Of a stretch of 64,000 nucleotides of DNA, positions 868 to 10,292 are shown piece after piece. The notes below the pieces were generated by a model that was not told where the DNA came from, did not search any database, and saw only the letters and a list, made by a program, of their open reading frames with translations. Made by a program: the position numbers and the translations under genes. The DNA is from Candidatus Micrarchaeota archaeon (lineage in GTDB: Archaea > Micrarchaeota > Micrarchaeia > Anstonellales > J096): NCBI GenBank assembly GCA_015523325.1, contig WAKO01000003.1:77-64076 (forward strand). Direction: 5' to 3'. How positions within the stretch are numbered: position 1 is the stretch's first letter; every line of letters begins with the position of its first letter.

Positions 868-951
868 GCAGGGGTCGCCCAGTGGTCAACGGCGCCACCT
901 TGAGGGGGTGGTCCCTTAGTGGGTTCGTGGGTTCGAATCCCACCCCCTGCA
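868..951 (+). tRNA. tRNA-Leu (anticodon GAG), type II with long variable arm, no intron
   Basis: Acceptor stem GCAGGGG/CCCCTGC with discriminator A. 3-bp D-stem. Anticodon stem CCACC/GGTGG with loop TTGAGGG. Variable arm CCC-TTAGT-GGG. T-arm GTGGG-TTCGAAT-CCCAC. CCA is not encoded. Confidence 0.8.
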
Positions 952-1040: not shown

Positions 1041-1460
1041 ATGGAGCTAAATCAAACAACCTTGATTATAGGAGTTGTAGCTCTTTTGATTATAGGTTTC
1101 TTTATCTTTTCTCAAGCCACAACTCCTATGCAAGAGCAAATGAATGCAATGGAACAAGAAATGGAAGAGATGATGGATGGAGAGGTTAGAGTTATTAATG
1201 TTGATGGAAGTGAGTTTAGATTTAATCCAAGCACTATTAGAGTAACAAAAGGGGAAAGAGTCAGAGTTGTGTTTAGAAATGTTGGAACTTTGCCACATGA
1301 CTTTGTTATTGAGGGAACAAATATAAGGACTAGGATAATATCTCCTGGAGAAACAGATGCAGTAGAGTTTATAGCTGATAGGACTGGGGAGCTTACATTC
1401 TATTGTTCTGTTGGAAATCACAGGGCAAATGGAATGGAAGGAGACTTAGTTATTGAATAA
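1041..1460 (+). CDS. Membrane-anchored cupredoxin-like (type-1 copper) protein
   Basis: N-terminal transmembrane helix followed by a cupredoxin fold. Candidate copper ligands are His (PHDF), and Cys-x3-His-x4-Met (YCSVGNHRANGM). Confidence 0.65.
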   Translation: MELNQTTLIIGVVALLIIGFFIFSQATTPMQEQMNAMEQEMEEMMDGEVRVINVDGSEFRFNPSTIRVTKGERVRVVFRNVGTLPHDFVIEGTNIRTRIISPGETDAVEFIADRTGELTFYCSVGNHRANGMEGDLVIE

Positions 1461-1461
1461 A

Positions 1462-1500
1462 CTTTGTTCTTTTTCTTTTTTGTTTTTTTAGTTTTTTTCT
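1462..1500 (+). terminator. T-rich tract (archaeal oligo-T terminator candidate) after the cupredoxin gene
   Basis: ttctttttcttttttgtttttttagtttttttc lies directly after the stop codon. Confidence 0.35.
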
Positions 1501-1632
1501 AGTAAAAATTAAGCTTATTTTTAAGATTAAATTTTCTGAAATTAATTTCATTTTTGCTTCATATTTTCTTAGAAATATTTTTCAAATCTATTTCTCTTCA
1601 ACTTTTAAAAGCTATTACAGCGCTCCCCAATC

Positions 1633-2103
1633 ATGGTAGGAAATATTAAGGTTTTGCTAGGATTGGCTTTGTTGCTATTATTGGTTGGTTGCACAAGTGT
1701 TGGAGAGGATTATCCAAACTTAAAGAAGTACTTGAACGGGAGGGAAGTTATTCTTTATAAGAGCAATTTCTGTGGATGTTGTGAGGCATATGCTTCCTAT
1801 TTAGAGGAGAATGGAATAAGAGTAAAGGTTGTTTCAATGGAAAACTTAGAGGAATTAAAAAATAGGATAGGTATTCCTATGACTTATTGGAGTTGCCATA
1901 CTGTTGATTTTGGAGATTTTATTGTGGAAGGGCATGTACCTTTAAGAGCTATTGAAATAGCCTTAAGGGAAAACATTGATTTTGATGTAATAGCATTGCC
2001 TGGAATGCCTGCTGGTTCTCCTGGAATGGGAGGAGTTAAACAAGGAAAGTTTGAAATATCCTTACTAAAAAATGGAGAGGCAGTTGATAATATTTTGATT
2101 TAA
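1633..2103 (+). CDS. DUF411 / CopG-like copper-binding lipoprotein
   Basis: Lipobox-like LLVGC signal and the CxCC motif (FCGCCEAY) typical of DUF411 proteins from copper-resistance loci. A conserved His/Met region follows (HVP, GMPAGSPGM). Confidence 0.6.
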   Translation: MVGNIKVLLGLALLLLLVGCTSVGEDYPNLKKYLNGREVILYKSNFCGCCEAYASYLEENGIRVKVVSMENLEELKNRIGIPMTYWSCHTVDFGDFIVEGHVPLRAIEIALRENIDFDVIALPGMPAGSPGMGGVKQGKFEISLLKNGEAVDNILI

Positions 2104-2155
2104 TCTTATTGGTCTTTGCTTTTTTGGAGTTTGACTAAAAAATGGAGGTGAGCAT

Positions 2156-2533
2156 GTGAAAGGTAATTTAGATTTAAGGAGTTTGGACTTAAAGAGCTTT
2201 ATTGGAGGATTTTTGGTTGCTCTTCTTGTTTTTGGAGCATTCTTTTTAGCAAAACCCCAGCAAGAGGTTTCAGTAGTTTCAACAACTAGTTATTTGGAGA
2301 TTAGGGATGCATTAAAAGCAAAGCTTATGGAAGAGGGAAAGTATAGGTGTTGTATAAAAGAGCCTTGTAGTTATTGCTTGGAGGAAGGAGGTTGTGATTG
2401 CATAGACAAAATAATGGAAGGAAGAGCTCCTTGTGGAGAATGCATTGGGGAAATTTTGGAAGGAAATGCAAACCCTTATCTTTCAGATGAACAAATCTCA
2501 AGAGCTCTCTCAGAAGTTAAGGAAGAGATGTGA
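2156..2533 (+). CDS. TM-anchored cysteine-rich protein (9 Cys in ~50 aa), function unknown
   Basis: GTG start preceded by GGAGGTGA. N-terminal TM helix. Motif CCIKEPCSYCLEEGGCDCIDK...PCGEC. Confidence 0.5.
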   Translation: MKGNLDLRSLDLKSFIGGFLVALLVFGAFFLAKPQQEVSVVSTTSYLEIRDALKAKLMEEGKYRCCIKEPCSYCLEEGGCDCIDKIMEGRAPCGECIGEILEGNANPYLSDEQISRALSEVKEEM

Positions 2534-2574
2534 TTTTTTTCCCTTTTCCTTTCTTTTTGTTTTATTTTTTAACC

Positions 2575-3060
2575 CTATTTTTTCATATTTAGCTTTAAAA
2601 CAACCGCATTTGTCATTCCTCTCCTTTTCCTCTCAATAATATCTTTTGATTCTAGCTTATCCAGAATCCTTGTTATTTTCACCCTACTAAACCCAGTTTC
2701 CTTAACCAACTCACTTTGCAGCATAATTCCTTCATTTTTTAGGAGCAACTCTAGGATTAGCTTTTCCTCTCCTTTAAACATTTTTAGCAACTTTTCAGGT
2801 TTTGCTTCTTGCTTTTTTCCTTCATTGTCAAAGAATAATTGCAGGAGTGAAGCTACTATTATTAAAAGAGAAAGGGTTACTCCAACATAAGCTTCTATTG
2901 GATAATAATCTGAGTGGGGGCAATAGCCCAAAGCTTCTATACACTTATTATCATCAACCTCCTTATATTTTAAGCTCATGTATATTACAATTATTAACAA
3001 TAGGAGAGCTGCAAAAACATTTACTAAAGCTAGTGCTTTCTTTTTTCCTATCATTTTCAT
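2575..3060 (-). CDS. Membrane-associated winged-helix (MarR/ArsR-like) transcriptional regulator
   Basis: Two N-terminal TM segments followed by a wHTH (SELVKETGFSRVKITRILDKLESKDIIERK). Transcribed divergently from the KaiC-like operon. Confidence 0.55.
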   Translation of the reverse strand: MKMIGKKKALALVNVFAALLLLIIVIYMSLKYKEVDDNKCIEALGYCPHSDYYPIEAYVGVTLSLLIIVASLLQLFFDNEGKKQEAKPEKLLKMFKGEEKLILELLLKNEGIMLQSELVKETGFSRVKITRILDKLESKDIIERKRRGMTNAVVLKLNMKK

Positions 3061-3628: not shown

Positions 3629-4311
3629 TAGGTAATGGTATTATAAAAACTTCTATTCCTGGATTTGATGAGATTTTAGGGGGAGGAATTCCGGTTGGAT
3701 CAATAATTTACATTTCTGGCTCTCCAGGAACAGGTAAATCAATACTTTCTACTCAATTTCTTATAGGAGGAATAAATAGAGGAGAGGTTGGGCTCTATTT
3801 AACAATGGAAGAGCCTAGGGAAAAGTTTGTTTCCCATATGGAAAGAGTTGGTTGGAATATTAGGGCTTATGAAGATAGTAATCAAATGATTATAATTGAT
3901 TATCCTCCTCATGAAGTTGATCAGTTAACCTCTCCTTCCAATCCTTTACTTGAGATAATTAAAGATTATAATGTTTCAAGGGTTGTGATAGATTCAATTT
4001 TGCCTTTAGCTATATCCTTTGATACTGATTATTTGAGAAAAAGAGCGTTCTTCCAATTGATTTCAAATATAAGTGAGTGGGAAACAACAACTTTTATTGT
4101 AGGAGAGGAAACATCCTTTAATCCTTCCAATGGAATCCCTGTTCTTAAGTATGGTTTTGAAACAATAGCAGATGGTTGGATACATATGTATTATGTTAGA
4201 AAGAGAATGGAAAGGAAGAGGTATATTGAAGTTATAAAGCTTAAAGGAATGAACCACTCTACAAGGCTTCATGAGTTTACTGTTTCCAAAGGAATAAGTA
4301 TAAAACCTTAG
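3625..4311 (+). CDS. Single-domain KaiC/RadA-like (RecA superfamily) ATPase
   Basis: Walker A GSPGTGKS. KaiC-like N-terminus IPGFDEILGGGIP. ~228 aa, as in archaeal ArlH/KaiC-like single-domain proteins. Confidence 0.75.
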   Translation: MIGNGIIKTSIPGFDEILGGGIPVGSIIYISGSPGTGKSILSTQFLIGGINRGEVGLYLTMEEPREKFVSHMERVGWNIRAYEDSNQMIIIDYPPHEVDQLTSPSNPLLEIIKDYNVSRVVIDSILPLAISFDTDYLRKRAFFQLISNISEWETTTFIVGEETSFNPSNGIPVLKYGFETIADGWIHMYYVRKRMERKRYIEVIKLKGMNHSTRLHEFTVSKGISIKP

Positions 4312-5573: not shown

Positions 5574-5599
5574 CCCTTTCACCACTAAAACTTTACAAT

Positions 5600-5691
5600 A
5601 GAAGCCTTAGCTCTGGGAACCTCAGAAAGACCTTTCAGGAGGGTCCACGGGGGGCAAGGCCCCGTGAAGGAAGGTTCAGAGAGGGTTCTTG
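5600..5691 (+). repeat. GC-rich conserved module (second copy) immediately 5-prime of tRNA-Leu(CAA)
   Basis: Identical to 776-867. Same hairpin CACGGGG-GGCAAGG-CCCCGTG. Confidence 0.8.
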
Positions 5692-5787
5692 GCAGGGGTC
5701 GCCCAGTGGTCAACGGCGCCGGACTCAAGATAGGATAAGAAATCCGGTCCCTTAGTGGGTTCGTGGGTTCGAATCCCACCCCCTGCA
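5692..5787 (+). tRNA. tRNA-Leu (anticodon CAA) with a ~12-nt anticodon-loop intron
   Basis: Same body as the 868-951 tRNA (D-arm, variable arm, T-arm and acceptor identical). Anticodon stem CCGGA...TCCGG. Loop CTCAAGA after removal of the insert (A)TAGGATAAGAA at the canonical 37/38 position. Confidence 0.7.
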
Positions 5788-5798
5788 ACTTTGGTGGA

Positions 5799-6758
5799 AA
5801 AATGAAAAAGCTGGTTGCTTTGCTTTCTTTAGCTTTCTTGTTGGTGTTGTATTATTTTGCAATATCCTTCTCCTCCTCATTGGAGGAGGTAGGGGTTTTG
5901 CTAGCTTATATAGCAGGCCTTACTATGATTGTTTTGCCTTGCACATTTCCTTTGGTTTTCGTAATAGTTCCTTTGACTTTGGGAAAAGAGTATAAGAAAG
6001 GAATTATTATGGCTATTTTGTTTGGTTTAGGATTAACAATAACTATAAGTATTTATGGAATCCTAACTGCAAAAGTTGGAGAGTTTCTTGGTTTAGATGA
6101 GTTTACAAGGGTTATGTTCTCTTTTGCAGGAATATTGTCTTATGCTTTTGGATTTTCTATGCTCGGTTTGGTTCCCTCTAACCTAATACCCTCTTTGAAT
6201 GTAGGGACTCCTTCCTTTATTTTGAAACAAAAGGATTACATAAGGGCTTTTTTAATGGGGCTATTTTTAGGAAATGCAGGAGTGGGTTGCCCTAACCCAG
6301 CCTTTTATGTTTTACTAACTTATATAGCCTCAACAGGAAGTGTTGTGGAAGGGTTTTTCCTTGGATTTATTCATGGTTTGGGAAGAGCAACTCCCCTCAT
6401 AATATTAGCGGTTTTAGGAGTTTTAGGGTATAATGCTTTAGACTTTTTAAAGAACAATAGGGAGAAGATAGAATCTATAACAGGCTGGATTCTTATTTTA
6501 TTTGGAGCTTTTGTATTAAATTATGGTTTATTTGGAATGTCCTTTTGGGAGGAAAGCTTTATCCATCAAGGCTGGAATGATTTTGTTAGAGATGTTTTTC
6601 CTTCTATAGCTGAGGAAGAAGGGCATGAGGTATTTGAGGGAGCAATTGAAACAGATACTTTAACCCCTTGGATAATAATAGCTATAATGTTTCTGATACC
6701 ATTAATTATAAGAGGAATTAAAGGAATTAAAGCCGAGAGTAAAGAAAAAGAACCGTAA
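5799..6758 (+). CDS. Polytopic membrane protein, CcdA/DsbD-like thiol-disulfide transporter candidate
   Basis: RBS GGTGG before the ATG at 5799. The ORF-track start at 5763 lies inside the tRNA. Multiple TM helices with membrane-embedded Cys (LPCTFP, GVGCPNP). Confidence 0.45.
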   Translation, partial: KMKKLVALLSLAFLLVLYYFAISFSSSLEEVGVLLAYIAGLTMIVLPCTFPLVFVIVPLTLGKEYKKGIIMAILFGLGLTITISIYGILTAKVGEFLGLDEFTRVMFSFAGILSYAFGFSMLGLVPSNLIPSLNVGTPSFILKQKDYIRAFLMGLFLGNAGVGCPNPAFYVLLTYIASTGSVVEGFFLGFIHGLGRATPLIILAVLGVLGYNALDFLKNNREKIESITGWILILFGAFVLNYGLFGMSFWEESFIHQGWNDFVRDVFPSIAEEEGHEVFEGAIETDTLTPWIIIAIMFLIPLIIRGIKGIKAESKEKEP

Positions 6759-6852
6759 TTTTTTAATATTAGCTCTACATACTTTTTCTTTGAAACTAGT
6801 TTCTCCAAATTCTTTAAGTAGGGATGTGGAGTTTTTTGTAGGAGGTGTAAAG

Positions 6853-7065
6853 ATGGAAATGAAAAGCGCATTGCTTTTAGGTGTGGTAGTGATATTGTTT
6901 GTGGTATCCATAGTTCAAACAATGCAACTTATGGAGTTAAAAGATAAAGTGAATAGCGGAGTTGCTTTATCTCAACAATCTCCTTCAGTTCCTCAAAACA
7001 CAGGAAACCCAGGAACACTAAGCCAAAACATAAATAACTTACCAACAATGGTTGGAGGTTGTTAG
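6853..7065 (+). CDS. Small TM protein (70 aa) ending in LPTMVGGC, a mini-paralog of the 7194-8570 protein
   Basis: Start context GGAGGTGTAAAGATGGA is identical to that of the next gene. One TM helix, a QLME motif, an S/Q/N-rich linker, and a C-terminal LPTMVGGC-stop. Confidence 0.45.
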   Translation: MEMKSALLLGVVVILFVVSIVQTMQLMELKDKVNSGVALSQQSPSVPQNTGNPGTLSQNINNLPTMVGGC

Positions 7066-7193
7066 AGTTATAAACTAAGAGTTATATTAGCTAATCAATT
7101 GGTTTTGATTTTTTATTCGTACTTACCTTTAAGATAAGCTAGGCCTTTATGATAGGTAGAGATTATTGGTGTTATTTAAATGGAGGTGTAAAG

Positions 7194-8570
7194 ATGGATA
7201 AAGGAAGTATTTTCCTTACAGGATTAGTTATGTTTTTCTTTTTAACATTTATCCCTAACTTTATTGATCCTTATTCCACTCAACTAACTTTTAGTTATTA
7301 TATGGTTAATACTCCATTTTATGTTTGGGGAGGAATAGCAACTCTTATTATTTCCGCTCTTGCTTTTGCTGGAACTGCTTATTATTTGAGAGCTTACCTT
7401 CCAACATTTTTTGGAGGTAATAGGGCTAAGATTTATTTAGCCATTTCAGCAGTGCTTGCTCTTGCATTTTATTACTTCACATTTGCTACAACATCCTTGA
7501 ACTTGTTTGCATACATTGAGATGAATGGCTTTCTCTACACATTCTTTTCAATGCTTCTTAATGCATTTATAATAGCTCTCTCCTCCATCCTTTTCATTGA
7601 TTTGGGAAATTTCTTGAGAAACTTAACAAAGGCAGAAACCTCTACATCTCTAGGAGGGTCTTTAGCTTCTCTTTTCTCCTTAGGTTGTCCTACCTGTGGA
7701 TCAATTATTTATTCAATGCTTGGAATAGTTGGAGGGCTTACAATATTGCCTTTAAAAGGATTAGAAGTAAAGTTACTTTCTTTAGCTTTGTTAATGTATG
7801 GAACTTATTTACTTTATAAGAGATTTTTCCCTGATGTAAAGATTAACCTTGTCCCTTCAGCTAACACCGCCTTAATTGCTTTGCTGGTCTTGGCCTTACC
7901 TATATTTGCTTATGGCCAATTCCAGCTAATGGAGATCTCCTCTTCTTTGGGGGGATCTCAAGTAGGAGGAAGCTCTTCTCCTGCTTTAGGACCTGCAAGC
8001 TCCTTTTCTTCAGCAAATTTGGAAGGAGTGGATGTTTATTCTGTTTCCTCCACTCCTGAAGCTTTAATTACAGTATTCCCAGAGCTTAAAAATGCTAAAA
8101 CAGAGCAAGACGTTATAGGCATTCTTTATCCGAGAGGAGCTCCAACCTATTCACAAGTTTTAGGAGGAATAAACTATGATGATCCGGTTAACTCAATGGA
8201 GTACTTATCCAGGTATTACTTTGCAGTAAGGGAAGATATAAGGAAAAACAAACCAGAGGTTTGGAACAGATATATTAATTTAGCTGCAGCTCCAAGAGGG
8301 ATTAGCTGTGAATTCTGTTGTGGAGTTGGGCCACAAGGAATAGATTCTCAAGGAAACCTAAGGTGTGGCTGTAAACACAATGTAGCATTACAAGGATTAG
8401 TTTTGGGATTAATGTCAAATACTGATTTGAGTGATGCAGAAATACTTAGGGAAGTTATGAAATGGAAAACTCTATTCTTCCCACGAAACATGGTTGCTTT
8501 AGGAGTTCAACTAGCTGGAAATGATGCCTCCTCCCTCTCCTCTCTTCCAGGAATGGTTGGAGGTTGTTAA
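7194..8570 (+). CDS. Polytopic membrane protein with intramembrane CPTC motif and a Cys-rich extracytoplasmic domain, ending in LPGMVGGC
   Basis: About 6 TM helices. GCPTCG lies in a TM segment. The C-terminal domain carries CEFCCGVG...CGCKH. The C-terminus is SLPGMVGGC-stop. The ORF-track start at 7149 is replaced by the ATG at 7194, which has an RBS. Confidence 0.6.
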   Translation: MDKGSIFLTGLVMFFFLTFIPNFIDPYSTQLTFSYYMVNTPFYVWGGIATLIISALAFAGTAYYLRAYLPTFFGGNRAKIYLAISAVLALAFYYFTFATTSLNLFAYIEMNGFLYTFFSMLLNAFIIALSSILFIDLGNFLRNLTKAETSTSLGGSLASLFSLGCPTCGSIIYSMLGIVGGLTILPLKGLEVKLLSLALLMYGTYLLYKRFFPDVKINLVPSANTALIALLVLALPIFAYGQFQLMEISSSLGGSQVGGSSSPALGPASSFSSANLEGVDVYSVSSTPEALITVFPELKNAKTEQDVIGILYPRGAPTYSQVLGGINYDDPVNSMEYLSRYYFAVREDIRKNKPEVWNRYINLAAAPRGISCEFCCGVGPQGIDSQGNLRCGCKHNVALQGLVLGLMSNTDLSDAEILREVMKWKTLFFPRNMVALGVQLAGNDASSLSSLPGMVGGC

Positions 8571-8685: not shown

Positions 8686-9837
8686 ATGGAACTTAGTAAT
8701 GAGAAAATAGATATTATTGTAGCTGTTTTAGTTGCTCTTACTTTTTTAGTTGTAATATTTAATTTTTATACTTCTCTAACCTTAAGCGAACAAATTGATA
8801 AGAAAATTGAGGAACTTTCTAATGTTAATGTTCCTAAAATAAATATTTATTTGATTAAAGAGTCTTCTTGTAATGAATGTTTGGATTTGCAAGGAGTTGC
8901 AAGCTCTCTTGCTTCTTCATTTCCTGGAGAAGCTAATTTAGAGGTTTTGAATAGAGAGGAGGGAAATTCATTTATAAGGAAGTATTTGATAAATAGGCTT
9001 CCTGCAATAGTTATTGAAGGAGATATCTCCTCCTTTAACGTTCCTCCCCAGCTAAACTTTGTTGAAAAAAATGGAGCTCTTGTTTTTGAAGGAGCAGTTC
9101 CTTACTTCTCATTAGAGGATAATTCTGTTAAGGGAGTTGTTGAGTTCATATTAATAAATCATAAAGGATGTGAGGTTTGTAAGGATATGAAAGTTGTTTA
9201 TGATTCCCTAACTTCAACAGGTATAGTTGGAAATCTTAAAGAGCTAGAACATCCGTCTGAAGAAGCAAATGAATTTGCTAATAATTATTCAATAACAAAA
9301 TATCCTACAATGCTTATAAGTAAGGATATTGATGAATATGGAATTCCAATAGGAGATTCAAATTTGGTTAGAACTTATGATAATTATTATGTTTTAGATC
9401 CCATTCCTCCTTACTTTGATTTAGAAGAAAAGAGGATAAGAGGAGAGTTGGAAGTAATTTACTTATTCTCACAAGACTGTGAGGATTGCATAAATATAAG
9501 TACTTTCTCAAGCGCTTTGAGGGATATCGGGCTTTACTTAAAGAATGAAACAGAGGTTGAAATAAACTCTCCTCAAGGAGAGGAGTTAATTTCAATTTAT
9601 AACATAACAAAGGTTCCAACGTTTATTCTAAAAGGAGATATAGAGGCTTATCCTGGTTTAAGAGGAAGTTTAGAAGAGATAGGATATTTTGTTAATGAGA
9701 GTTTCGTTTTCTCTGATTTGGAAAGAGTAGGTAAATATATAGCGGTTGGAGAAGAGCTTGAGAATGAAAGTGTTAATACAGGGAATGAAACTCTAGATGA
9801 AGGTTTGGTGAATGAAACAATGAATGAGACAGTATAA
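8686..9837 (+). CDS. Membrane-anchored protein with three thioredoxin-fold domains, each carrying a CxxC motif
   Basis: N-terminal TM helix. CxxC motifs CNEC, CEVC and CEDC. Trx-like cis-Pro contexts (ITKYPTMLI, ITKVPTFIL). RBS AAGGAGG. Confidence 0.65.
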   Translation: MELSNEKIDIIVAVLVALTFLVVIFNFYTSLTLSEQIDKKIEELSNVNVPKINIYLIKESSCNECLDLQGVASSLASSFPGEANLEVLNREEGNSFIRKYLINRLPAIVIEGDISSFNVPPQLNFVEKNGALVFEGAVPYFSLEDNSVKGVVEFILINHKGCEVCKDMKVVYDSLTSTGIVGNLKELEHPSEEANEFANNYSITKYPTMLISKDIDEYGIPIGDSNLVRTYDNYYVLDPIPPYFDLEEKRIRGELEVIYLFSQDCEDCINISTFSSALRDIGLYLKNETEVEINSPQGEELISIYNITKVPTFILKGDIEAYPGLRGSLEEIGYFVNESFVFSDLERVGKYIAVGEELENESVNTGNETLDEGLVNETMNETV

Positions 9838-9839
9838 AT

Positions 9840-10292
9840 TTGGTTGAGGATAGTATGGGAAAGCTAAAAGAGCCCTCTTTTCCAACAAAAAAAGTGGTTA
9901 TTGCTTTTGTTATTGCTCTTTTGTTTCTTTTTGTGCTATCACTTTTGTTCAAGAAGAACCTCCCTCCCACTGATATAAGAGGGCATATAGAATCCTATCC
10001 TCCTTCTAGGATAATGGAAGAGCCAATAAGTGTTGCTGTTCATAAGCATATTTTAGAGCATACTCCTTCTGGGAGGAGAGGAGTAATAATAAATTATAAC
10101 TGTGTTAAGTTTAGTTGTGAAGAGGGATTGCTAGAAAAGCTTGAGGAAATAGCACTTTCTGATGATAGGACTTATTTAATACCAAACAATGAAATGGATG
10201 CAAAGATAGTTGTTTCAGCAATAGGAAATCAATTGGTTTTGGATGAGTTTGATGAAGCAAAGATAAGAGAATTCATTCAACAAGTTCCTTAA
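9840..10292 (+). CDS. TM-anchored hypothetical protein (~150 aa) with CxxxxC
   Basis: N-terminal TM helix. NCVKFSCEEG. Last gene of the redox/copper island. Confidence 0.4.
   Translation: MVEDSMGKLKEPSFPTKKVVIAFVIALLFLFVLSLLFKKNLPPTDIRGHIESYPPSRIMEEPISVAVHKHILEHTPSGRRGVIINYNCVKFSCEEGLLEKLEEIALSDDRTYLIPNNEMDAKIVVSAIGNQLVLDEFDEAKIREFIQQVP

Follow-up and report, generated by a model that had tools for sequence, protein, structure and literature searches.

A paired cysteine-tail module of DPANN archaea, linked to CcdA and thioredoxin: a possible swinging-arm thiol relay

Shuttle cysteines carried on a flexible arm are a feature of several thiol systems, among them the C-terminal CGC tail of Erv2, the loop of Ero1, the loops of DsbB and VKOR, and the GCUG arm of mammalian thioredoxin reductase; in ScsABCD, DsbD-like and thioredoxin-like proteins are combined under copper stress. 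An arm of this kind with Gly-Gly before the cysteine is that of SoxY, from the bacterial Sox sulfur-oxidation system: sulfur intermediates are bound there to the cysteine of a C-terminal GGCGG sequence, which sits on a swinging arm (PMC6067878, PMC5336275). SoxY gene clusters also encode SoxV, a CcdA orthologue that reduces the thioredoxin SoxW, according to Appia-Ayme and Berks (2002) as cited in PMC10451225. Here we analyze two adjacent genes in a 64,000-nucleotide stretch of contig WAKO01000003.1 from Candidatus Micrarchaeota archaeon (the whole 64-kb stretch is called the window below), which encode membrane proteins of 70 and 458 residues with the same C-terminal tail, LPxMVGGC, directly before the stop codon. 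We find that the two genes form a conserved module of DPANN archaea, that their tails vary in concert, and that the module is tightly linked to genes for CcdA and thioredoxin. By analogy with the systems above, we propose, at a probability of about 0.45, that the shared ending is a flexible arm with one reactive cysteine in an extracytoplasmic relay served by CcdA and thioredoxin.

An earlier, sequence-only reading of the window had noticed that both genes end with LP(T/G)MVGGC immediately before the stop, and the sequence bears this out: the small open reading frame (ORF) terminates in NINNLPTMVGGC-TAG and the large one in SSLPGMVGGC-TAA, and the last 17 nucleotides (ATGGTTGGAGGTTGTTA, a stretch that takes in two bases of the stop codon, the first and second) are the same in both genes. 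Among ORFs of at least 40 residues in all six frames of the window, these two are the only ones that end in GGC. Both proteins also contain a juxtamembrane QLMEL or QLMEI motif, and the GCPTCG and SCEFCCGVG...CGCKH motifs that the same reading described in the large protein are present where it had placed them (Table 1).

To trace the family more widely, the large protein was searched against ∼5.8 billion proteins, which gave 138 matches, 120 of them listed. The MVGGC ending is found in 116 of these 120 homologues, and the remainder are one fragment or single substitutions; the near-invariance of the tail upholds the earlier view that it is not a chance ending. The few matches with a source name are from Woesearchaeota, Nanoarchaeia or Micrarchaeia. 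An exhaustive hidden Markov model search of 1.84 billion cluster representatives (50% identity) returned only 282 members of the domain family, and its distant representatives (E ∼1e-20 to 1e-35) keep an [MQ]VGGC ending. In a species-level scan with one genome per GTDB species, relatives were present in 171 species genomes; the labels of the best 80 of these 171 name DPANN lineages (Woese-, Pace-, Nano-, Micr-, Aenigm-, Iain- and Altiarchaeota), "archaeon", or "uncultured Methanosarcinales" (automatically labelled bins). The domain family is DPANN-wide, all but the unspecific labels naming DPANN groups.

The possibility that the family was one already annotated had been raised from the start; Pfam and NCBIfam gave zero matches for either window protein, and with Pfam at E values up to 10 only scattered weak matches were obtained on 54 family members (YchJ_N in 9). 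A sequence search of the PDB with the family profile found nothing relevant, which leaves the domain without a relative among solved structures. No paper on the family was found in literature searches on the family itself, the MVGGC tail, DPANN archaea together with CcdA or disulfides, and archaeal C-terminal cysteines, and in the sources searched its genes are mostly unnamed or "hypothetical protein".

The domain proteins come in two architectures. About 25 proteins of 400-500 residues have a multi-helix membrane domain in front, while most have 250-290 residues and consist of an N-terminus rich in Lys, Arg and His, one hydrophobic helix ending in FNQxQ(I/L), a linker, and a conserved domain of ∼180 residues. 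In the family alignment, S371, C372, E373, C375, C376, G377, G379, C391, G392, C393, H395, E420, W424, P430 and M433 are invariant in the domain, as are M454, G456 and C458 in the tail. Of 230 sequences chosen for having the Cys motifs and ending in Cys, 226 have six Cys in the domain, no more and no fewer, counting the terminal one. The intramembrane GCPTCG, which the sequence-only reading had stressed, is real but does not belong to the core of the family: the membrane domain that bears it is fused in only ∼11 loci, where GCP[TVS]CG is kept, and a stand-alone version, looked for in short-form loci, turned up in one case only (L072; L numbers denote individual loci). Judged by this distribution, the membrane domain is an accessory fusion.

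The small protein is a regular companion of the domain protein. A word-index search with the small protein gave only 2 matches, owing to the low complexity of its sequence, and its family was recovered instead by scanning loci for the tail. Of 79 loci that have the domain gene, 75 also have a small tail gene beside it; this gene follows directly downstream in 72 of them and lies upstream in the other 3, namely the window and its two closest relatives, L003 and L005. Members of the small family have an optional His/Lys-rich N-terminus, a hydrophobic run of 15-20 residues, the motif VQA(F/V)QL (70 of 81 proteins), a linker rich in Ser, Gly, Ala and Thr, and the ending L(P/S)x(N/S)L(Q)NLPx(M/Q)VGGC. 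From this Q-motif to the C-terminus there are 44-58 residues (median 52), and 77 of the 81 proteins have a single Cys. Counted back from the terminal Cys as -1, the tail shows L(-8) in 80/81, P(-7) in 78/81 and M(-5) in 76/81 (Q in 5), with V, G, G and C invariant.

Profile-profile alignment of the small and domain families with hhalign aligns the last 18 columns (E 2.6e-9, probability 96%), and a second match covers the anchor, Q-motif and linker (E 0.013); the helix at residues 221-253 of the large protein corresponds to the anchor plus FNQxQ(I/L) of the short forms and to the anchor plus VQAxQL of the small proteins. Because both the tails and the anchor, Q-motif and linker are matched, the small protein is a domain-less paralogue of the domain protein, in an arrangement that is old. 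This agrees with the earlier description of the 70-residue protein as a mini-paralogue of its large neighbor.

We also observed long His/Lys-rich N-terminal extensions (e.g. HEHKPHEHKP repeats) ahead of the anchor in small and domain proteins of many lineages, including the small genes of L014, L015, L018-L021 and L025 and many of the P00xx domain proteins; they are absent from the window proteins. A second, more divergent small tail protein, which does not have VQAxQL, is found at L023 (3711-3971, - strand), L072 (5670-5906, + strand) and L189, with endings such as NPRDLPQMVGGC and SSSGMVGGC. Directly beside the module in L049 (2309-2446) and L067 (10894-11085) are small lipoprotein-like ORFs (signal peptide plus SAC(T/S)) with a GGGC ending, possibly a third kind of Gly-Gly-Cys-terminated protein.

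The identity of the two genes in the window extends to their starts. The sequence-only reading had reported an identical 17-nucleotide start context, and GGAGGTGTAAAGATGGA does occur in exactly two copies in the window, at 6841 and 7182, which place the ATG codons at 6853 and 7194. These starts are backed by the N-termini of homologues (P0002 begins MDKSEIF) over the public gene calls, which lie further upstream and give 473 residues for the large protein and 91 or 79 for the small one. The shared initiation region is specific to this genome and is not kept in related loci; in L003, the stop of the small gene and the start of the large gene share position 3766. Since 72 of 75 related loci have the small gene downstream of the domain gene, the identity of the start contexts is a matter of a strong Shine-Dalgarno sequence and local identity, and not a conserved feature.

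The two tails also co-vary. At position -5, 75 of 81 pairs have Met in both partners, 6 have Gln in both, and none is mixed. Five further Q-type domain genes from different clades were checked, four of which had enough flanking DNA, and 4 of these 4 have a Q-type small partner, so that the overall count is 75 M/M, 10 Q/Q and 0 mixed. Gln is found at -5 in ∼12% of family representatives; on a rough neighbor-joining tree of the domain, with the tail excluded, the state changes between M and Q at least 13 times, and Q appears in many clades. At the DNA level the picture is different: the VGGC codons of the two genes are the same within a genome in 47% of cases versus 35% for shuffled pairs, a gap that could stem from shared codon usage, and the VGGC-stop codons are fully identical in only 2 of 81 pairs, which makes the DNA identity of the window pair an exception. 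Gene conversion was rejected as the source of the tail identity, because synonymous codons mostly differ between partners. The combination of M/Q matching without exception and mostly different synonymous codons indicates that selection maintains matched tails at the protein level. Matched tails in turn imply one shared binding site or direct tail-to-tail contact.

The tail is also exclusive to this pair of families. An exact DNA-pattern scan of metagenome contigs for P-x-M-V-G-G-C-stop found at least 120 loci. The in-frame ORFs among those listed comprise 71 of the small family, 43 of the domain family and 20 others, and these 20 are featureless ORFs of 5-80 residues, out-of-frame matches, or fragments or variants of both families. 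Among the metagenome loci listed, the tail is thus confined to two co-encoded families, which argues against a general sorting signal. The earlier suggestion of a sorting or attachment tag is not supported: sorting tags usually mark many unrelated cargo proteins, which makes a tag of this kind unlikely, and no sortase-like gene or likely processing peptidase was seen among the annotated conserved neighbors.

To place the tails in three dimensions, we modelled the large protein with AlphaFold2 and the family alignment. The full-length protein gave a mean predicted local distance difference test score (pLDDT) of 84.5, and the C-terminal domain alone gave a pLDDT of 92.5 and a predicted template modelling score of 0.90. 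The model of this domain has nine helices and a two-hairpin knuckle bearing CxxCC and CxCxH, and the last 4-6 residues of the large protein are disordered in both models (pLDDT <50). The knuckle combines a CxxC...CxC pattern with beta-hairpins, and the zinc-binding domain family YchJ_N was weakly matched (9/54, best E 0.015); a four-ligand knuckle would leave C376 and the terminal Cys as an odd pair. The 15 residues ahead of the anchor have 2.32 Lys plus Arg, those behind it 0.64, and this positive-inside charge bias places the domain and tail outside the cell, with a predicted N-in/C-out anchor. In the domain protein a median of 42 residues separate the Q-motif from the globular domain, which is near the 52 residues that follow the motif in the small protein, and with stalks of such similar length the arm of the small protein could reach the domain.

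What kind of genes surround the module? Neighbors within 6 kb were clustered in 79 loci and annotated with Pfam; percentages refer to the complete loci, 39 in number, whose flanks extend for at least 4 kb in either direction. The canonical gene order is domain gene, small gene, triple-CxxC thioredoxin and CcdA, and in the window it is CcdA, small gene, large gene, triple thioredoxin and DUF3105 (Table 1). Of the complete loci, 97% have a thiol-redox gene of some kind near the module, 92% the triple thioredoxin protein and 82% CcdA. Copper- or metal-type genes, one or more, are found in 62% and belong to various families: DUF411/CopG-like proteins in 33%, P1B ATPases in 21%, BlaI/CopY-like proteins in 18% and Met-rich proteins in 13%. 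Other recurring neighbors are membrane-anchored MarR-type regulators (36%), DoxX, rhodanese and Lgt, and a BlaR-like peptidase homologue lies beside a BlaI-type repressor in 12/79 loci. The CcdA protein of the window carries the membrane Cys motifs VLPCTFP and GVGCPNP, and two Cys are present in 36/54 of the neighboring homologues. Its start is more likely at 5802 (MKKLV) or 5925 (public contig, the L001 call) than at GTG 5763, which is disfavored because it overlaps the tRNA at 5692-5787. The thioredoxin protein matches PF00085 (35.1 bits versus 23.5) and PF13192 (26.4 versus 24.8), and three CxxC units are present in 55/78 of its homologues.

Table 1. Coordinates of the module and its neighbors in the window
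Feature	Position	Strand	Details
Cupredoxin	1041-1460	+	upstream copper/thiol island, ∼5 kb upstream of the pair
DUF411/CopG-like lipoprotein	1633-2103	+	N-terminal lipobox LLLLVGC; SNFCGCCEAY (CxCC motif)
Cys-rich protein	2156-2533	+	125 residues; no Pfam match
Membrane-anchored MarR-type regulator	2575-3060	-	
CcdA/DsbD-type transmembrane thiol-disulfide electron transporter	5925..6758	+	PF02683, 41 bits versus cut-off 27.1
Shine-Dalgarno and start context of small gene, GGAGGTGTAAAGATGGA	6841..6857	+	exact 17-mer
Small tail protein gene	6853..7065	+	70 residues; ATG 6853, TAG 7063-7065; short N-terminus, hydrophobic anchor (residues 6-20), VQTMQLMEL (21-29), polar Ser/Gln/Asn-rich linker, LPTMVGGC, stop
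Tail LPTMVGGC and stop, small protein	7039..7065	+	tail codons 7039-7062
Second copy of start context, large gene	7182..7198	+	exact 17-mer
Large protein gene	7194..8570	+	458 residues; ATG 7194, TAA 8568-8570; N-terminal multi-helix membrane domain, anchor helix with Q-motif, linker, Cys-rich all-alpha domain, tail
Accessory N-terminal membrane domain	7194..7898	+	residues 1-235; its only two Cys are in GCPTCG
GCPTCG motif	7683-7700	+	residues 164-169
Last transmembrane helix running into juxtamembrane helix GQFQLMEI	7854..7952	+	residues 221-253; helix in AlphaFold model
Conserved domain, predicted extracytoplasmic	8001..8543	+	residues 270-450; all-alpha with two-hairpin Cys knuckle (model)
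Cys5-His centre, S-C372-E-F-C375-C376-G...C391-G-C393-K-H395	8304..8378	+	residues 371-395; columns invariant in family alignments
Tail LPGMVGGC and stop, large protein	8544..8570	+	tail codons 8544-8567
Membrane-anchored protein with three thioredoxin-like CxxC units	8686..9837	+	CNEC, CEVC, CEDC
DUF3105 protein	9840..10292	+	PF11303, 30.3 bits; last gene of the same-strand run

The copper and thiol families upstream in the window (1041..3060) recur near the module in other genomes. The Cys-rich protein that sits here beside the DUF411 protein and the cupredoxin is one of a group of 125-156 residues (CCxxxPCxYC...CDC...CGEC...NPYL) that has no Pfam match and lies near the module in 5 other loci (e.g. 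L021, 8567-9037). In L003 (5145-6488), the module is followed by a gene in which thioredoxin-like domains and a cupredoxin domain are joined (Thioredoxin_3, PedC-like, Cupredoxin_1); this fusion in the closest relatives hints at thiol chemistry coupled to a copper electron carrier. A clear bacterial-type prolipoprotein diacylglyceryl transferase, Lgt (PF01790, 268 bits), is near the module in 5/79 loci (e.g. L020, 635-1405). A multi-pass membrane protein with an N-terminal HCPLC and no Pfam match, at L068 (5818-6342, - strand) and in 9 other loci, lies beside membrane-anchored MarR regulators in the vicinity of the module. The window also contains a tRNA-Leu(GAG) at 868-951 (+ strand) and a second tRNA at 5692-5787 (+ strand), seen by Rfam and missed by ARAGORN, which probably has an intron, given ∼12 extra nucleotides after the anticodon region. 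A near-identical G+C-rich stretch of ∼100 nucleotides precedes each tRNA (regions 768-951 and 5590-5787) in a genome that is otherwise 34% G+C, and this leader has no match in Rfam.

We propose the following relay. The domain protein, held by its N-in/C-out anchor, would display the ∼180-residue all-alpha domain with CxxCC...CxCxH outside the cell, followed by a disordered arm of ∼18 residues that ends in LPx(M/Q)VGGC-COOH. The small protein would present the same arm on an anchor, a Q-motif helix and a flexible Ser/Gly linker of ∼45 residues, with the terminal Cys as its only Cys. Each tail would then act as a swinging arm that offers one reactive thiol, and we infer that this cysteine is redox-active or carries cargo. 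The two arms may share one docking site on the Cys-rich domain, or bind to one another, and would exchange a disulfide or thiol-bound cargo (sulfane sulfur or Cu(I) are candidates) with the Cys5-His centre. CcdA would move electrons from the cytoplasm to the triple-thioredoxin protein, which would re-reduce the arm thiols. A reactive-cysteine arm fits better than a tag because the linkage to CcdA and thioredoxin is near-obligate, the small protein has just one Cys and the M/Q states of the partners match perfectly, and a swinging-arm relay would be the simplest model because the last-residue Cys, the domain-less copy, the matched arms, the spare Cys and the CcdA/thioredoxin linkage all need explaining.

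Several observations weigh against this relay. The linkage to CcdA and thioredoxin is guilt by association and would equally fit a system that keeps metal-binding thiols reduced. We know of no DPANN genomes noted for sulfur oxidation or c-type cytochromes. No residue of the domain co-varies cleanly with the M/Q state of the tail, the only signal being diffuse and probably phylogenetic. In addition, the small protein may have a cleaved signal peptide rather than an anchor, because its hydrophobic run is short (median 16 residues) and followed by VQA.

A variant of the relay would make the two arms themselves the redox couple. The Cys5-His (metal) domain would be the source or the acceptor of disulfides, or of sulfane sulfur, in a DPANN-specific extracellular thiol system that needs no quinones, and two single-Cys arms, one from the enzyme and the other from the domain-less paralogue, would form a split redox pair; such a system would be an analogue of DsbB, VKOR or Erv for quinone-less organisms, possibly with a cupredoxin or copper as electron acceptor. 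Tail-to-tail pairing would explain the M/M or Q/Q matching. We consider this version decidedly unlikely. A rival with more in its favor, which we still think unlikely, is a relay for Cu(I) or another soft metal, in which the small protein is a membrane-tethered metallochaperone that passes metal to the matching tail and on to the Cys5-His cluster for storage, detoxification or delivery, while CcdA and thioredoxin merely keep the ligand thiols reduced. In copper trafficking, chaperone and target share a motif, as CopZ and Atx1 do with the N-terminal domains of their ATPases, and this would account for a motif shared by two partners here. The copper and metal genes within 6 kb in 62% of complete loci, the cupredoxin and DUF411 protein ∼5 kb upstream of the pair in the window, the thioredoxin-cupredoxin fusion after the module in L003, the HMA or YHS ATPases in L004, L208 and L209, and the His-rich, predicted cytoplasmic N-termini of many family members all point in the same direction, and the vicinal CC of the domain recalls the CxCC of DUF411 (SNFCGCCEAY in the window protein). 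However, Met at -5 is swapped for Gln in ∼12% of representatives, in both partners at once, and so is dispensable as a thioether ligand; the single Cys of an arm makes by itself a poor site for Cu(I); thiol-redox neighbors are near-obligatory (97%) whereas metal genes are not (62%); and there is no match to the HMA, CopZ, Sco, PCuAC or CopC families.

The remaining explanations assign the terminal Cys a role other than a relay. It could be S-lipidated, take part in a thioester or be otherwise modified, or the tail could be cut or transpeptidated at LPxM by an enzyme whose gene lies elsewhere. In every case the Cys ends the chain, LPx recalls the start of sortase motifs, (M)VGGC fits the last positions of the bacterial lipobox pattern [LVI][ASTVIG][GAS]C (PROSITE PS51257), and Lgt is encoded near the module in 5/79 loci. 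Nevertheless, the tail is on two co-encoded families only, has no hydrophobic segment before it and no transmembrane helix or basic cluster after it, and breaks the lipobox pattern with Gln at -5 and Lys, Glu or Asp at -6. The same genomes have ordinary N-terminal lipoboxes (as in the DUF411 protein at 1633-2103), both proteins are already anchored at their N-termini by prediction, and the annotated members of the 25 most conserved neighbor clusters include no sortase-, archaeosortase- or rhomboid-like gene. We therefore regard modification or processing as improbable. No better placed is a structural role, in which the six Cys would make up three permanent disulfides, or else bind zinc and form one disulfide that holds the tail against the core. 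The small protein would then serve as an assembly factor, inhibitor or pseudo-substrate in the tail groove, and CcdA and thioredoxin as folding or isomerisation machinery. The even, fixed number of Cys (six in 226/230 of the motif-selected set), the triple-CxxC thioredoxin neighbor, and a tail co-variation that fits competition for one groove are in line with such a role, but in the AlphaFold model the tail is disordered and not docked while all else in the domain has a pLDDT >90, a dedicated partner that is found in nearly every such operon and has one terminal Cys is difficult to account for as a folding aid, and the function of the domain itself is left without an explanation. Finally, the identical 17-nucleotide stretches at the starts and ends of both window genes might suggest a likeness by chance, or a gene 3' end and ribosome-binding site that were recently duplicated on the spot, the outcome that the sequence-only reading had named as fatal to its own view. 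The pair is present in 75/79 loci from many DPANN phyla with divergent DNA, and only 2/81 pairs share all tail codons; this conserved pairing with differing codons refutes chance and recent duplication, to which we give practically no credence.

The importance of the module lies in where it is found. DPANN archaea have small genomes and are mostly host-dependent, and their cell-surface biochemistry is largely uncharted. The analysis defines, in at least 171 species-level genomes, a two-gene module for which Pfam and NCBIfam offer no model, whose fold is without a relative among solved structures, and which is tightly tied to the only known route for reducing power across the membrane, from CcdA to thioredoxin. 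Both families are new, and their partners, CcdA and thioredoxin, are well known. The design, in which an enzyme is joined by a domain-less paralogue and the cysteine arms of both co-evolve, is unusual. Should the tails prove to be swinging-arm cysteines, the module would provide a new route for extracytoplasmic thiol, copper or sulfur chemistry, in organisms that to our knowledge lack quinones and c-type cytochromes, and a clean case in which the partner of an enzyme is its own domain-less paralogue, reduced to anchor and reactive arm. The strict M/M or Q/Q matching of the tails predicts a physical interaction. In practice, LPx[MQ]VGGC-stop is a simple marker for annotating these genes, the short ones of which might otherwise be missed.

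It is instructive to compare the tail and its carriers with systems already described. The short conserved C-terminal motif with Gly-Gly and LPx resembles the sorting signals PGF-CTERM (read by archaeosortase), GlyGly-CTERM (rhombosortase) and LPXTG (sortase), and VGGC resembles positions -3 to +1 of a lipobox read by Lgt. The earlier reading had not recognized the ending as any of these sorting signals, and rightly so: the tripartite PGF-CTERM and GlyGly-CTERM signals were rejected because the stop directly follows the Cys in 116 of the 120 listed homologues and in 81/81 small proteins, and an LPXTG sortase signal because nothing follows LPx[MQ]VGGC and no sortase-like cluster is seen among the annotated conserved neighbors. 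A sorting signal with many cargoes was rejected on its two carriers in the 64-kb window and two families among the metagenome loci listed. A lipobox normally follows an N-terminal signal peptide, whereas VGGC here is C-terminal and follows a polar NLQNLPx; the four-residue core fits, but this context and the Q(-5) and K/E/D(-6) variants break the pattern. A CaaX prenylation box requires Cys at -4, and here it is the last residue.

The copper chaperones CopZ and Atx1 offer another parallel, a small protein and a larger partner with the same Cys motif, and as around CopZ/Atx1 and ScsABCD, P1B ATPases, DUF411/CopG, cupredoxin and CopY/BlaI-type regulators are frequently nearby. In contrast to CopZ/Atx1, the proteins here have no ferredoxin-like HMA fold and no MxCxxC, their motif has one Cys and a Met exchangeable with Gln, and neither matches HMA (PF00403). 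Erv2, Ero1, DsbB and thioredoxin reductase share with the domain protein a rigid helical core with CxxC and a Cys on a mobile terminal arm, as predicted here; they differ in that the proteins here have no binding features for flavin adenine dinucleotide or quinone and no homology to them, and have one Cys per arm, with the second arm coming from a separate protein.

There is a resemblance in setting to CcmH/CycL/NrfF (PF03918), a helical thiol-disulfide oxidoreductase of non-thioredoxin type. Its small helical domain is anchored in the membrane, faces away from the cytoplasm and has a CxxC right behind a helix, with the active site LRCxxC in a three-helix bundle, and it is fed by CcdA and a thioredoxin-like protein in the chain from CcdA to ResA/CcmG to CcmH; there are also local echoes of the motifs RY..L...C..C and SD.EI...P. 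The domain here is twice as large, with CxxCC, CxCxH and a cysteine tail, and membership of this family was rejected, as there is no Pfam match and profile-profile E values of 0.11 to 0.29 leave homology unsupported. As far as we know, apocytochrome c, the substrate of CcmH, is not expected in most DPANN archaea.

SoxY offers the closest working precedent for the proposed relay. It is a soluble beta-sandwich exported via the twin-arginine translocation (Tat) pathway, partnered with SoxZ, with Gly-Gly also after the Cys, whereas the carriers here are a predicted all-alpha domain and a domain-less peptide in anchored proteins with Cys last, without sequence or fold similarity to SoxY; SoxZ, SoxAX, SoxB and SoxCD were not seen among the neighbor clusters. 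The proteins are thus not SoxY, and the likeness is one of functional analogy only. It consists in a single Cys next to Gly-Gly at the end of a C-terminal arm (GGCGG in SoxY, VGGC here), extracytoplasmic in SoxY and by prediction here, and in gene clusters that in both systems include a CcdA-type transporter and thioredoxins (SoxV and SoxW/SoxS in the Sox clusters), joined in some loci here by rhodanese or DoxX.

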